NCBI GenBank assembly: GCA_026414605.1
Contig: JAOAIP010000019.1
Location: 5,242 to 69,241, forward strand
Length of the DNA stretch: 64,000 nucleotides
Direction of reading: 5' to 3'
DNA from: Bacteroidia bacterium
Lineage (GTDB): Bacteria; Bacteroidota; Bacteroidia; B-17B0; Aurantibacillaceae
A model generated the notes under the pieces. It did no database searches and had not been told where the DNA came from. It saw only the letters and a program-made list of their open reading frames with translations. Each line of letters begins with the position of its first letter. Position 1 is the stretch's first letter. This document shows, one piece after another, positions 8,826 to 60,148 of the stretch. The position numbers and the translations under genes were made by a program.

Positions 8826-9938
8826 TCAGTGTATTCCTATTCTATAACCAATTCCTGCTTCAATATGATATGCTACGGCAAAATGGGTTTTTAATGAAAA
8901 GTGAGCCACTACATTGTTTTTAAAATAATAACGACAACCAAGACGATGATATAATCTACCGTTTGGAAATTCTTGTGAAGGAGTATACAAATAATAGCCC
9001 ATTTCTAAGATAGGTGTTAAGCGACCAAAATTGTATGCATAACAAAATTTTAGCCCCGTGCTAAATGTTGAGTGAAAATCAAAATGAACTGCATCTGTAT
9101 CACTTTTTCGTAATTCATACGGCAAACTTTGTTCGTAAAATGCATCTATACCTGCCCCCAATTGTTGATTTTGATGGATATTAAAATAATAATTAGCCCC
9201 CACTGTAAGAGCCCAAAGTTTATTGCCCGTTGGAGGTTCTACTTCATTCACACCTATGCCTGTAAAAAATAATAATTCGTGTTTTGTTTTTTTATCTGAT
9301 GTAGAGTCCTGAACAACAGAATAACGTTGAGTTTCTTTCCATTTGTAAGTGATGCCTATAGAGGGATACAAAGTGTTTATGCCTAAGTTAGGAACAGCAA
9401 AACGACAATTACTCACGTGAATAAATGTGATGTTGGGATTAAGATAAAGATGAGGAGAAATTCGCATTTGCCATAAGAAGCGAAATTGAATAAAGGTGTT
9501 CAAATGTGTACCAATGGCGATGTTTTTATGATTGGTTTCGGTATCATAAGGTTTAGTAATGTAAGCCAATCCCCAAGCCATTTTAAGTTTAAATAAGATA
9601 GATTTTTCTTTGTGTGTAAAAGGAAATTCTAAATAGGGAGCCACTGCAATACTACTGCCTATTTTTTCTTTGTTTCCAAGTGTTTCAAAGTTTAAACACA
9701 AACCATAATCGGGAAAATGATTTATCCGATGCCATTTGTAGTATCCTGAAGATGGTCGAAATAAATTAAGTTCTACAAAAAAAGGACGTTCTGCGATGAG
9801 ATTACCAATTTTTGATGAATGTTGAACAACAGAACCATATCCGCCATAGATAGAAAGAGAAGTAAAACCTTGCTGAGCAATACTTGTCATTCCTACAAGG
9901 CATAGGAAAGAAAGAAGTATGTGTTTTATGTGGAACAT
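8826..9938 (-). CDS. acyloxyacyl hydrolase / PagL-like lipid A deacylase family outer membrane protein
   Basis: Signal peptide followed by a beta-barrel-like alternating pattern. SVVQHSSKIG...YYKWHRINHFPDYGLCLNFETLGN resembles the Bacteroidota proteins annotated as acyloxyacyl hydrolase. Called from memory of the family only. Confidence 0.5.
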   Translation of the reverse strand: MFHIKHILLSFLCLVGMTSIAQQGFTSLSIYGGYGSVVQHSSKIGNLIAERPFFVELNLFRPSSGYYKWHRINHFPDYGLCLNFETLGNKEKIGSSIAVAPYLEFPFTHKEKSILFKLKMAWGLAYITKPYDTETNHKNIAIGTHLNTFIQFRFLWQMRISPHLYLNPNITFIHVSNCRFAVPNLGINTLYPSIGITYKWKETQRYSVVQDSTSDKKTKHELLFFTGIGVNEVEPPTGNKLWALTVGANYYFNIHQNQQLGAGIDAFYEQSLPYELRKSDTDAVHFDFHSTFSTGLKFCYAYNFGRLTPILEMGYYLYTPSQEFPNGRLYHRLGCRYYFKNNVVAHFSLKTHFAVAYHIEAGIGYRIGIH

Positions 9939-9950
9939 AGTATATCATTT

Positions 9951-10077
9951 AGTGGAAAGTTATACTCACCCCCTTTTATTAGTAGAAAGTGAAAAGTTTT
10001 AGGTCACTATAACTCTAAATCTCTAAATTGAAAAAGTATTTTCATTACTTTCAACTTTTCACTTTCAACTTTTAACT
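9951..10077. repeat. palindromic NNAAAGT heptad-repeat element, copy A
   Basis: The left arm has AGTGGAAAGT and AGTAGAAAGTGAAAAGT. The right arm ACTTTCAACTTTTCACTTTCAACTTTTAACT is its approximate reverse complement. Related copies lie at 38917-39036 and 59130-59298. Confidence 0.7.
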
Positions 10078-10083
10078 AAATTT

Positions 10084-10199
10084 GCGTGAGGGATGCGAAG
10101 GGCGGCGAAGCCGGTACTGCCCCGAGGAGCGAAGCGACGAGGGGATTACCGAAGCGATAGCGAAGCCCGTAGCAGCCCGACCCGAACACACCACAGCCA
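10084..10199. other. GC-rich island with repeated C-GAA-G cores (unassigned structured element)
   Basis: Exact GCGAAGC at 10105-10111, 10129-10135 and 10160-10166. 6/7 variants at 10095-10101 and 10149-10155. Composition is far more GC-rich than anything else non-coding in the window except the tmRNA. Confidence 0.6.
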
Positions 10200-16171: not shown

Positions 16172-16216
16172 ATAAACAAAATTAATTACATTTGAATTCC
16201 TAAGTTTATAAAAATG

Positions 16217-16570
16217 TGGACCCGCTCCGAATCGAACGGAGGTCCAAGTAAGCAATGAGTAAGTTTTCTACAGGTTTAGTGTTCACTTTCGCATTCGGTA
16301 CAAAGCAAGCAGAACACCGCTTATACTTTGTACCTATCCGCTGGTAGTCATCTTTCGTAGCGGAGTCCGAAAGATGCTCTGTCTCTTTCCGACGCCTTAC
16401 ACCTTTCGCCAGACAGAAGGGCTAAAGGGAAGACGGGCTGCAACTATTAGGCAGCCATTGCGAAGTTAGATTCGCCATTTAAGTTTTGGAGACGAGATTT
16501 AAGAGCATTGTCCCCATTGCTCTACCTGCTTACTTACCCATTGTTCTTACTGTCGATACCTGTCGGGCCC
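16217..16570 (-). ncRNA. ssrA: tmRNA (transfer-messenger RNA)
   Basis: On the reverse strand the 5' GGGCCCG pairs with the 3' CGGGUCC, including the G3-U alanine identity pair. T-arm GGACCUCCGUUCGAUUCGGAGC. Tag reading frame GGC GAA TCT AAC TTC GCA ATG GCT GCC TAA TAG (16476-16444) encodes GESNFAMAA, close to the usual Bacteroidota GExNYALAA tags. CCA is not encoded. Confidence 0.95.
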
Positions 16571-35890: not shown

Positions 35891-36286
35891 TAGGGTTTGG
35901 TGAAAAAGCCAAAATTTACTTTCATAAAAATTAAATTATGGTTTCATAAAAAATCCGCCGAAGGCGGATAAATGTGAATAGCCATCGGTGAAACCGATGG
36001 TAAAAAGCAACATATTTATTTACAACTCTGAAAGGGTTGAATAAAAAACAAAAAATATCTTTTGTAGAACATTCAACCCCTTCGGGGTTGCAAAATTTAT
36101 TACCTTTTTATACCCCCAATTTCATTGGGGGCTATTCACATTTAATCCCTTCGGGATAATTTTTTTAAAATTAAAACAAGTGCAAGGATTTTTAGAAAAT
36201 TTGATAAAACGATTGCACAAAAAAAACAAAAAACGCATGGTAACTTAATAAATATCAATTAATTGAAACTTTTTCATCAAACCCTA
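35891..36286. repeat. 396-bp quasi-palindromic array of six triloop hairpins bounded by 18-bp terminal inverted repeats
   Basis: Terminal inverted repeat TAGGGTTTGGTGAAAAAG (35891-35908) / CTTTTTCATCAAACCCTA (36269-36286), 17 of 18 matching. Hairpins lie at 35953-35969, 35982-36000, 36023-36039, 36074-36090, 36113-36131 and 36144-36156. See findings. Confidence 0.8.
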
Positions 36287-38852: not shown

Positions 38853-38885
38853 AACGGGGAACTTTATGTTCCCCGTTTTTGTTTT
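38853..38885 (+). terminator. intrinsic terminator
   Basis: AACGGGGAAC-TTTAT-GTTCCCCGTT followed by a T-run, 22 nt after the protease stop. Confidence 0.85.
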
Positions 38886-38916
38886 AAATGATGCGTGTTT
38901 ACGGGATTATTTTACT

Positions 38917-39036
38917 ACAAAGAACACATTAGTAAAAAGTGAAAAGTATAAAGTTTGAAAGTAAAAGGAAATATTTTTCAATATAATGATGTAGCGTTTT
39001 AATACTTTTCACTTTTTACTAATTATTTTCTTTGTG
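38917..39036. repeat. palindromic NNAAAGT heptad-repeat element, copy B
   Basis: Left arm AGTAAAAAGTGAAAAGTATAAAGTTTGAAAGT. Right arm AATACTTTTCACTTTTTACT. Outer flanks ACAAAGAACACATT / AATTATTTTCTTTGT. Confidence 0.7.
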
Positions 39037-39149
39037 TCTTTTGTGATTAAGTGTGAAGTAGCATAATAGATATGATATTTTATCCTTAAATTTTGTTATT
39101 AAGACATAACAAATCAACGTAAAACAGCAATAATTAAAATGGAATTGTT

Positions 39150-59050: not shown

Positions 59051-59129
59051 AAAGACAATCGTGTTTTTTCAAATTGGCACATTGATTTGACTTTATTAAA
59101 AAATAATTTTTTCAAGTGCTTAACCCAAA

Positions 59130-59298
59130 CCACAAAGGATACAAGGATAATAGGTAGTTAAAAGTAGAAAGTAGAAAGTGGAAAGTATAAAGTAAAAAAA
59201 AGGTTGCCACTATAAATTTAAATCATTAAATTACAGAAATACTACTTCTACTTTCAAACTCTTTACTTTCAACTTTTAACTAATTGTGTTCTTTGTGG
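59130..59298. repeat. palindromic NNAAAGT heptad-repeat element, copy C (most complete)
   Basis: The left arm AGTTAAAAGT AGAAAGT AGAAAGT GGAAAGT ATAAAGT has a 7-bp period. The right arm is ACTACTTCTACTTTCAAACTCTTTACTTTCAACTTTTAACT. Outer flanks CCACAAAG (59130) / CTTTGTGG (59291). Confidence 0.75.
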
Positions 59299-59332
59299 AA
59301 AAATATAAAATCAGTAGTAAAACGTTTACACA

Positions 59333-60148
59333 ATGAAGTACAGATTTCTTTTAATATATTGTTATTTTGTAATGTTTTTGTTTATTACCAAAATAATTGT
59401 TTCCCAAGAAATGCCCACTACTCGCAAAAGCACCGCAGACAAAGAATTAGGATCAAACAACAAAATACTCATTATTCCATTTGAGAATAAAATGTATATG
59501 AGTGAAATTGATTATTACATTAATAGAGAAACAAAATTAAATATGAAGCAAATTCGTTATGAGTTTAGAGATGGATTAAATGAACAGTTATATTATGCAT
59601 TCAAAAAAAGAAAGTTCAACCCTATTGACTTGATGAGCGATACGGTTAAGTACAATAAGGATTTAAAGTTTATTTATGGCAATATCACTTATGACTATGT
59701 CAAAATACCTGATCCTAACAACTATAAACCGCCCGTCAAAGAAAAAAAAGAAAAGGGCATTCAGCAAGGACAAATTGTGGCAGAAACAGAAACTGAAAAC
59801 AAATTTATGAACACAAGAGTTCTATCGCCCTCTTTGATTCCTTATTTATATCAAAAATACAAAGCCCAATATTATGTATTTATTAATGAATTGGACTTAA
59901 AAGCATCTGCAGTAAATCCAACTGATTATATACCTGAAACGGCAAAAAGAAAGGTAATTGTGCATTATACAGTTTATTCAGTAGATGCTAAAGAAATACA
60001 TTCAGGTATTGTAGAAAAAGAATTTGAAAAAACATTAAATACACCCAAAGCAATCATCAAAAATAATTTTTCATTTATAGCAGAAACAATAGCAGAGAGG
60101 GTAGTAAACCAAGTCAATAAAAATATTACTAACGAAAAAACTAAGTAG
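59333..60148 (+). CDS. hypothetical secreted or membrane-anchored protein
   Basis: 271-aa ORF with an N-terminal hydrophobic segment. No family recognised. Confidence 0.55.
   Translation: MKYRFLLIYCYFVMFLFITKIIVSQEMPTTRKSTADKELGSNNKILIIPFENKMYMSEIDYYINRETKLNMKQIRYEFRDGLNEQLYYAFKKRKFNPIDLMSDTVKYNKDLKFIYGNITYDYVKIPDPNNYKPPVKEKKEKGIQQGQIVAETETENKFMNTRVLSPSLIPYLYQKYKAQYYVFINELDLKASAVNPTDYIPETAKRKVIVHYTVYSVDAKEIHSGIVEKEFEKTLNTPKAIIKNNFSFIAETIAERVVNQVNKNITNEKTK

Follow-up and report, generated by a model that had tools for sequence, protein, structure and literature searches.

The three intergenic palindromes described here, each built from 7-nucleotide (nt) NNAAAGT repeats, are real and form the visible tip of a large, recently expanded non-autonomous foldback family. 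They lie in a 64,000-nt stretch of DNA (C44:5242-69241, contig JAOAIP010000019.1; hereafter the window) from Bacteroidia bacterium GCA_026414605.1, a Bacteroidota-like draft genome of 2.48 Mb in 76 contigs with 32% GC and ~96% completeness, and are referred to as copies A, B and C. On balance, we consider it probable that they are miniature, gene-less members of a foldback family that multiplied recently in the lineage of this species and that is related to cassettes in which heptad arms accompany a PF05635 gene. PF05635 is the four-helix-bundle protein of 23S rRNA intervening sequences and is homologous to Avd of the diversity-generating retroelements.

Results

A high-copy foldback family in the source genome

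Whereas the original prediction, made from the letters of the window, had listed three copies in the window, a genome-wide pattern count yielded well over 100 family members. The genome holds 314 NNAAAGT arrays of at least two heptads, 195 of which have at least three, and the commonest units are TGAAAGT, TAAAAGT, AGAAAGT, GGAAAGT, AAAAAGT and GAAAAGT. Seventy-six short-loop pairs show the order (NNAAAGT)n, 32-128 nt, (ACTTTNN)n, and no pair in the genome shows the reverse order (ACTTTNN)n-loop-(NNAAAGT)n; 10 additional pairs enclose loops of ~143 nt. Altogether, the paired units recognized, about 120-240 nt in length, number more than 86, with inverted arms and inverted c/d ends. Because an array is found no more than 300 nt from 19 of the 152 contig ends, the true number of elements is probably higher.

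The family is modular. Arms comprise 2-11 heptads and finish in a TTAGT/ACTAA cap, and the loops include five conserved families of 49-66 nt with a mean pairwise identity of 76-90%. Outer end modules, which also recur in the genome, define two frames. In the type I frame, to which copies B and C belong, arms and loop stand between TTACTAnTCAGCACTTCAAACTTAACCACAATAATTAGTTG and ACTAATGTGTTCTTTGTGGTAAAATATAACCTGAACAGTAAC; the c and d ends are imperfect inverted repeats of ~44 bp (GTTACTnnTCAG...ACCACAA...ATTAGT) and mark the outer limits of 11 complete elements. The type II frame, represented by copy A, places arms and loop between ACTCACCCCCTTTTATTAGTAG and TNACTAAnnTTnGCGTGAGGGATGCGGAGGG and continues into a GC-rich GCGAAGC hairpin module, which accounts for a GC island at 10084-10199 of the window. 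There, this a-end module has ~70% GC and several GCGAAGC mini-hairpin motifs; more than 50 copies occur in the genome, with conserved ends and a variable middle (110-250 nt). The same loops are found with a/b ends and with c/d ends. Another GC-rich module, 'e' (CTTCCTTATAGGTGTCGCCCTTTCAGGGCTTG...CACAGGGCTTTGCCCTGTG...), is located within heptad arrays with heptads on both sides, in the arrangement H5> e H5> (H, heptad array; the arrowhead gives its orientation), at the sites listed in Table 1 and about 11 more; arrays are therefore landing sites for other repeats.

The heptad-foldback frame also holds an alternative cassette (C9:104284-104415, C48:78615-78749 and C26:10584-10715). Here, between ACTCACCCCCTTTTATT and GCGTGAGGGATGC, two hairpins, CCCCCTCTCTAA..TTAGAGAGGGGG and GCCCCTCTCTTT..AGAGAGGGG, replace the heptad arms, and the first of these has 67 matches in the genome.

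Recent gain and turnover in one lineage

A four-heptad pattern has 214 matches in this genome but essentially none in eight congeners and 32 further relatives. The genes that flank copy C are adjacent in all seven congeners possessing both, with spacers of about 5-60 nt compared with 282 nt here. Closer relatives were represented by two contigs from a metagenome scan. One of them (L168), with 85-88% nucleotide identity across both flanks, has an empty site at copy C and a stop-to-ATG spacer of 65 nt instead of 282 nt; the other (L167; 96% nucleotide identity) carries the copy C element with three left heptads rather than five and with several units altered. These comparisons show that copy C was acquired at a position where a relative of ~87% identity has no element, that heptad number changes between near-identical strains, and that the family represents a recent burst of more than 100 copies confined to one lineage and absent from its relatives. 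Gene order around copies A and B is not conserved in the congeners, and hence these copies provide no strict empty site; no AAAGT array was found within 1.5 kb of the orthologues of their flanking genes in the congeners.

One congener (G003), otherwise without the family, has a lone (TTAGTTA)3(AAAGTTN)4 array directly upstream of a gene start (L002 1481-1535, corresponding to G003:C2:448819-448873), accompanied only by a TTTTTACTAAA remnant ~75 nt away. This array may be an old or decayed copy.

Association with PF05635 genes

The original prediction stated that no gene explained the family, which is true of the window but not of the genome, where a PF05635 gene lies inside arrays and ten copies carry its 5' end. 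This gene, at C48:9017-9340, is the single full match to PF05635 (23S_rRNA_IVP, Avd-like) in the genome; it is intact, encodes 114 amino acids (aa) and matches at E = 1.5e-34 (6e-35 on protein), with 2gsc and 2rld as relatives in the PDB. On its coding strand, an (AAAGTNN)7 array extends up to 15 nt before the ATG and an (AAAGTNN)8 array starts 30 nt past the stop codon, and 3' of the downstream array follow a truncated core2 loop, (ACTTTNN)4 and an a-type end. Inside the ~143-nt loops described above lie four weak matches to the N-terminal part of PF05635. The ten loops of this length match nt 1-138 of the cassette interior (the 15-nt leader plus 41 codons) with 91-94% identity and share one breakpoint, at which they run directly into the opposite arm. 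They are one deletion derivative of the PF05635 cassette, amplified at least ten times. Copy A has the same frame as elements that carry the PF05635 5' end as their loop (for example, C58:57856-58109), and its own loop contains ATGAAAATAC followed by AGAGATTT, in the order seen at the start of the PF05635 gene, a resemblance that is suggestive only.

The association extends to other genomes. PF05635 was detected in 22 of 23 heptad-bearing genomes and in three of the eight congeners, two of which have stop codons in the gene. Cultivable organisms with both AAAGT foldbacks and PF05635 genes include Pedobacter glucosidilyticus DSM 23534, Alloalcanivorax marinus R8-12 and Flavobacterium sp. LC2016-01. 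Period-7 arrays occur within 200 nt of 22 of 30 PF05635 genes, compared with 5 of 175 control windows, and 14 of the 30 genes have inverted period-7 arrays on both sides, which shows that PF05635 genes are flanked by such arrays across phyla. Five genes have AAAGT-type arms, with heptad variants similar to those of gene-less copies in the same genomes; GGAAGTA, GGCAGTA, GAGTGAT, GGGGAAC and GAGCCAT are among the other arm units, many of which contain AGT. Where the arms are readable (loci L137-L166), the 5' arm is purine-rich on the coding strand and the 3' arm is pyrimidine-rich.

Structure of the three window copies

The repeats of the window far exceed chance expectation: the two-heptad pattern GAAAGTNNAAAGT occurs five times against 0.10 expected and the triple heptad seven times against 0.09 expected, counts that no shuffle reached. 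In a repeat search, the arms of copies A, B and C were 77-96% complementary, and stable hairpins were recovered on folding, with z scores against shuffled sequence of -6.4 (DNA) and -7.8 (RNA) for copy C, -3.8 for copy A and the value given in Table 1 for copy B. The stems are 5-bp AAAGT/ACTTT helices at 7-nt phase rather than perfect palindromes, because the NN bases of mirrored heptads agree at chance level (23 of 181, or 12.7%, versus 11.4 +/- 2.1% for shuffled partners); mirror symmetry at these positions was therefore rejected. What is conserved is AAAGT at 7-nt spacing, without conservation of NN between mirrored heptads, and on this sequence evidence the proposal of phased protein-binding sites gains in plausibility. 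The G+T-rich strand was the better folder in 61 of 66 copies, which represent only five independent families; its orientation relative to the end modules was inconsistent, and no conclusion is drawn from this asymmetry.

Much of the initial description of the copies was borne out. The letters of copy C at 59130-59298 agree with it, its outer flanks CCACAAAG (59130-59137) and CTTTGTGG (59291-59298) pair perfectly, the further copies at 9951-10077 (A) and 38917-39036 (B) are present with the shared ends that had been named, and all three copies are located between protein genes. The loop of copy C is AT-rich, as described, with a length of 47 nt instead of about 48 nt. The limits of all three units had been drawn too short (Table 1), and copy A reaches 10199 because the GC-rich end module is counted in. 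Copy C ends in a 9-nt tail that stops 1 nt short of the ATG at 59333, and its loop has GGT(TGC)CACTATAA..TAAATC..TAAATT in common with that of copy A. Copy B, parsed as c_end- H3> core1- <H2 (C44:44149-44256), comes after a separate, canonical terminator hairpin at 38853-38885. To the left of copy A, a solitary outer heptad lies 10 nt from the start codon (9936-9938) of a minus-strand gene, and the arrangement suggests that the ACTCACCCCC end of copy A sits within an older array.

Table 1. Coordinates of the window copies, their parts and the sites of the 'e' module (window positions unless a contig is named).
Feature	Position	Strand	Description
Copy C, whole inserted unit	59116-59332	.	Type I; 217 nt; bounds from empty-site comparison; in order: degenerate d-type end, heptad arms with core5-like loop, c-type end, 9-nt tail
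Copy C, left arm	59156-59193	+	AGTT cap and 5 NNAAAGT heptads: AGTTAAAAGT-AGAAAGT-AGAAAGT-GGAAAGT-ATAAAGT
Copy C, loop	59194-59240	.	47 nt, AT-rich; diverged member of the core5 family
Copy C, right arm	59241-59281	+	ACTTTNN heptads; imperfect complement of the left arm
Copy C, c-type end module	59279-59323	+	ACTAATTGTGTTCTTTGTGGAAAAATATAAAATCAGTAGTAAAAC; consensus from 28-31 genome copies
Copy B, whole element	38897-39069 (approximate)	.	Type I; fold z = -7.2
Copy B, reversed c-type end	38897-38932
Copy B, left arm	38931-38954
Copy B, loop	38955-39003		core1 in reverse
Copy B, right arm	39004-39023
Copy B, d-type end	39018-39069
Copy A, whole element	9962-10199	.	Type II; frame b_end-H>-X-<H-a_end
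Copy A, end	9962-9985		ACTCACCCCCTTTTATTAGTAG
Copy A, left arm	9981-9997
Copy A, loop	9998-10046		core5
Copy A, right arm	10047-10077
Copy A, a-type end	10074-10199		With GC-rich GCGAAGC hairpin module
Solitary outer heptad	9948-9961	+	TTTAGTGGAAAGTT; left of copy A; pairs with 10067-10081
'e' module site	C5:13703-13869
'e' module site	C23:89978-90101
'e' module site	C48:38103-38227

In a search of the window at Rfam gathering thresholds, the sole match was a transfer-messenger RNA gene (16214-16570, minus strand; RF00023, 131.8 bits), with no match at the elements. A separate hairpin-rich intergenic element lies at 35891-36286; if it is of the IS200 type, it would be non-autonomous, since the genome has no Y1_Tnp gene.

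Candidate mobilizing enzymes

Transposase searching took in three families. The genome yielded no match to Y1_Tnp (PF01797, the family of the transposases, RAYTs, that go with REP (repetitive extragenic palindromic) sequences) at E <= 0.01, none to rve and none anywhere to RVT_1, and the positive controls were detected in each case; the REP/RAYT reading was rejected for lack of a Y1_Tnp gene and the retro-element reading for lack of an RVT_1 gene. None of the multi-copy open reading frames (ORFs) of at least 120 aa was plausible as a transposase. An intact DDE_Tnp_1 insertion sequence at C30:4878-5868 has a 302-aa frame and 17-nt inverted ends (ATGCGAATCAGGRGTTG). These ends recur at the ends of at least eight other contigs, which marks the element as multi-copy, its copies having been collapsed during assembly; one decayed copy is present at C36:22373-22744. 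As a mobilizer it was rejected, since its inverted ends are unlike any end of the heptad family.

A DUF5618 gene of 129 aa is present in three copies (C1:25601-25987, C69:94-552 and C71:50348-50743) and was likewise rejected as a mobilizer, having no heptad arrays beside it. The C69 copy lies at the start of its contig, with a NuoB-like gene after it, and the copy on C1 lies 69 nt from the end of that contig; these two copies may belong to a single locus, possibly within the nuo operon, that a contig break has divided.

AAAGT foldbacks in other phyla

In a cross-phylum scan that took a single genome for each species and looked for three heptads followed, after 40-70 nt, by three complementary ones, AAAGT foldbacks were found in at least 115 stretches, from host genomes of 34-68% GC. 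Among the matches listed, the phyla are Acidobacteriota, Planctomycetota, Chloroflexota, Patescibacteria, Firmicutes, Gammaproteobacteria, Cyanobacteria and Bacteroidota, and the preferred NN bases are genome-specific (AAAGTAG, AAAGTTC, AAAGTCG and AAAGTGA). Triple heptads reach 1,437 in a Heliobacteriaceae metagenome-assembled genome (MAG), 1,526 in a Blastocatellales genome, 1,178 in an Acidobacteria MAG, 508 in Hydrococcus and 441 in Thermoflexus, with controls near zero. In examples inspected by eye (Blastocatellales loci L026, L040 and L046), the loops are not conserved between copies. Viral contigs hardly carry the foldbacks and gave two matches against none, too few to serve as a control set or as a test of vectors.

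Again among the matches listed, flanking gene pairs comprise 58 co-directional, 27 convergent and 13 divergent cases, and foldbacks abut both gene ends (35 sides) and gene starts (28 sides). We see in this a mild avoidance of divergent promoter regions and a pattern that is not terminator-only; because gene starts and gene ends are flanked alike, the terminator reading was rejected.

In Acidobacteriota MAGs, AAAGTTC foldbacks stand between consecutive genes (L111 527-613 and 1075-1174), and the gene after the second, starting MARYNGPVCRLC, is one that we take to encode ribosomal protein S4. Another foldback (L112 1337-1444) lies directly beside a gene that by eye is tRNA-like. Such siting indicates that long stems are tolerated between closely spaced genes.

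Discussion

The window palindromes are best explained as short, gene-less relatives of a PF05635 cassette. The unit consists of a 5' NNAAAGT arm, a short conserved loop and a 3' ACTTTNN arm inside one of two kinds of end module, and its full-size relative would be a small cassette with the same arms around the ~114-aa PF05635 gene. Copies with short loops, those of the window among them, would then derive from larger deletions of the kind seen in the ten ~143-nt loops and would have been copied in trans. For the cassette's own protein, the AAAGT units at 7-nt phase could be recognition sites, a suggestion that we make tentatively, and it is rather doubtful that dispersal depends on the PF05635 protein. 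As the genome yielded neither a transposase nor a Y1 enzyme or reverse transcriptase with ends that match, spread would need host replication or recombination functions. After insertion, the arms would lengthen or shorten by slippage, and, if transcribed, the long AU-rich stem would be a likely RNase III substrate, by analogy with true intervening sequences.

Several observations weigh against a PF05635-related origin. The gene on C48 stands between arrays of the same orientation (H7> ORF H8>) and not within a simple inverted pair, an arrangement in which it could be a passenger that had come to rest in an array. Loops of 49-66 nt, among them those of the window copies, show no significant alignment to the PF05635 cassette (p = 0.17-0.7), and these elements are linked to it because they share arms and end modules. 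Copies B and C have extra outer c/d ends (GTTACTnnTCAG-type inverted termini) that the cassette does not possess, and one heptad-rich genome (G053, with 506 matches) contains no PF05635 at E <= 1e-5. No target-site duplication is visible at the 11 complete type I copies or at the junction of copy C with L168, where AT-rich flanks and 12-15% divergence limit the resolution. To our knowledge, PF05635 has no catalytic activity. In addition, an enzyme gene may have been missed because the draft is in 76 contigs and ~96% complete.

Some of these observations would be expected if the heptad foldbacks were independent and the PF05635 genes, like the GC-rich e-module, were passengers that land preferentially in arms or loops, marking arrays without making or moving them. 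The same-orientation arrays around the C48 gene, the repeated occurrence of the e-module inside arrays (H5> e H5>), the end of copy A within an older array and the abundance of arrays in G053 all fit such a view. We nevertheless regard it as unlikely, because a deletion derivative with the array/leader junction preserved exactly was amplified at least ten times and because 14 of 30 genes across phyla are bracketed by inverted arrays at similar short distances; it would also leave the spread of the foldbacks unexplained.

Alternatively, copies B and C could be ordinary MITEs (miniature transposable elements with inverted repeats) bounded by the c/d ends and moved in trans by a DDE transposase, with the heptad foldback as captured cargo. 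The ~44-bp imperfect inverted repeats that bound 11 complete elements, the inserted DNA of copy C, which spans end module to end module, and the presence of a multi-copy DDE_Tnp_1 insertion sequence in the genome are in its favour. However, the DDE_Tnp_1 ends (ATGCGAATCAGGRGTTG) are unlike the c/d ends, no other multi-copy ORF and no rve gene was found in the search of three transposase families, no target-site duplication was seen, and the same loops occur with a/b and c/d ends alike; we therefore consider this account distinctly unlikely.

It is more improbable still that the elements serve the host under selection, as RNase III sites, as transcript stabilizers or attenuators, or as phased arrays for an abundant nucleic-acid-binding protein. 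The stable RNA folds, the conservation of only AAAGT at 7-nt phase, and the siting within operons, at gene boundaries and between ribosomal-protein genes in many phyla could be read in this way, as could the tendency of core1 elements to follow the orientation of the flanking genes (20 versus 7 on the left and 20 versus 8 on the right). Yet the elements are absent at the same loci in all congeners, near-identical strains differ in the copy number and length of the elements, gene starts are flanked as well as gene ends among the matches listed, and copy B comes after a separate, canonical terminator hairpin. Origin in place, by polymerase slippage of heptameric simple-sequence repeats plus local palindrome formation without dispersal, fits the differences in heptad number between near-identical strains and a proposal made for heptamers, which form the most abundant class of long simple repeats in prokaryotes (Mrazek 2007, cited by PMC4692102 and PMC4679880), but it is already contradicted as the sole explanation by the recurrence of conserved loops (49-143 nt) and end modules (25-45 nt) at over 60 unrelated loci and by a 217-nt block that is present or absent as one unit, and, scarcely credible as a whole, it survives only for changes in arm length.

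A PF05635-related origin of the foldbacks may have wider consequences. If the link between gene and arms is causal, it would provide a function for the widespread PF05635 family, including the Avd partner of diversity-generating retroelements, and would define a mobile element that spreads without a known transposase. A broader conjecture, to which we give less than even credence, is that one pan-bacterial class of tiny selfish cassettes exists whose sole gene encodes an Avd-like four-helix-bundle protein recognizing its own phased 7-nt arms; the foldbacks would be its gene-less offspring, and variants of the arms would give rise to the AAAGT arrays, the cyanobacterial short tandemly repeated repetitive (STRR) sequences, the TAACTGA arrays and the stems of rRNA intervening sequences. 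Such a class would be a type of mobile element without a classical transposase and would account for heptamers being the commonest long simple repeats in prokaryotes. The genome studied here is an unusually clean case, as it combines a recent, lineage-limited burst with one resident PF05635 gene and an amplified deletion derivative of that gene, while close relatives supply an empty site and a variant of different length. There are also practical implications, as heptad repeats break short-read assemblies (19 of 152 contig ends here) and place long stems immediately beside start codons and inside operons.

Comparison with known systems

Diversity-generating retroelements combine Avd with a reverse transcriptase and template and variable repeats, and the present genome differs in having no RVT_1 match anywhere. 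The family resembles REP sequences, bacterial interspersed mosaic elements and REP doublets forming hairpins (REPINs) in that dispersed extragenic palindromes act as landing sites for other elements; it differs from REP/REPIN-RAYT systems in the absence of Y1_Tnp and in having AT-rich tandem heptads instead of 20-40-bp GC-rich hairpins with a GTAG/CGTC tag. The original prediction of a dispersed MITE/REP-like repeat is right as to kind, the family being high-copy, non-coding, gained at the copy C site, confined to one lineage and nested with other repeats, but wrong for REP in the strict sense, given that neither a Y1/RAYT gene nor GC-rich GTAG hairpins are present. Its suggestion of an iteron-like array is not supported in the plasmid-origin sense. 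Plasmid and phage iterons are direct repeats of ~17-22 bp beside a replication initiator gene and an origin, whereas the units here are 7 nt long and inverted, occupy more than 100 loci on the chromosome and have no rep gene in their neighbourhood.

With MITEs, the family shares small size, lack of coding capacity, high copy number, intergenic siting and inverted ends, and one heptad subfamily is an amplified internal-deletion derivative of a gene-bearing unit; unlike in MITEs, the gene-bearing relative encodes PF05635 and no recognized transposase with the same ends. Foldback (FB) transposons are eukaryotic, kilobase-scale and transposase-dependent. The likeness to them is one of architecture only, namely long inverted arms of short tandem repeats in variable number around a variable central loop.

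The ORF-bearing rRNA intervening sequences of Coxiella, Leptospira and the candidate phyla radiation, which are inserted in a 23S or 16S rRNA helix and removed by RNase III, similarly contain a small PF05635 gene in a long stem of inverted arms and exist in gene-less versions. Enclosure of PF05635 by complementary arms was likewise observed here, at C48:9017-9340 between AAAGT arrays and at 14 of 30 genes elsewhere. In contrast to those sequences, the three window copies, like the C48 cassette, are sited between protein genes and not in 23S or 16S rRNA, the arms are tandem heptads, and there are more than 100 copies. The S23p protein of rRNA intervening sequences has been called functionally uncharacterised (bioRxiv 10.1101/2024.02.27.582315; PMC10053308).

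The original prediction did not recognize a described class of repeat, which requires qualification, for heptameric repeats, including convergent pairs, have already been described and left unexplained (PMC4692102; PMC4679880), whereas the AAAGT strings are new to the literature searched, a full-text search for AAAGT-heptad strings having returned no relevant paper. Bacterial heptameric tandem repeats have been on record since the cyanobacterial STRR work, with Xanthomonas and Beggiatoaceae following later. These two reports name heptamers as the most abundant long simple repeats in prokaryotes and describe 186 GGGAATC-type arrays in Xanthomonas, 70 of them in convergent pairs, STRR heptamers in Nostoc and Calothrix, and TAACTGA arrays in Beggiatoaceae, Cyanobacteria and five Bacteroidetes; the heptameric repeats of Xanthomonas, Nostoc/Calothrix and Beggiatoaceae have no accepted origin or function (PMC4692102; PMC4679880). 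The present family is unlike them in its NNAAAGT unit, in the use of that unit to form arms with conserved loops and ends, and in its tie to PF05635, which we did not find in PMC4692102 and PMC4679880. It is like the STRR-type heptameric repeats in consisting of tandem 7-nt arrays that lie between genes, have a few degenerate positions and a varying number of units, are scattered sporadically across the phylogeny and are often paired convergently, as illustrated here by 195 arrays of at least three units, by arms of 2-11 units and by the difference of three versus five units between strains.

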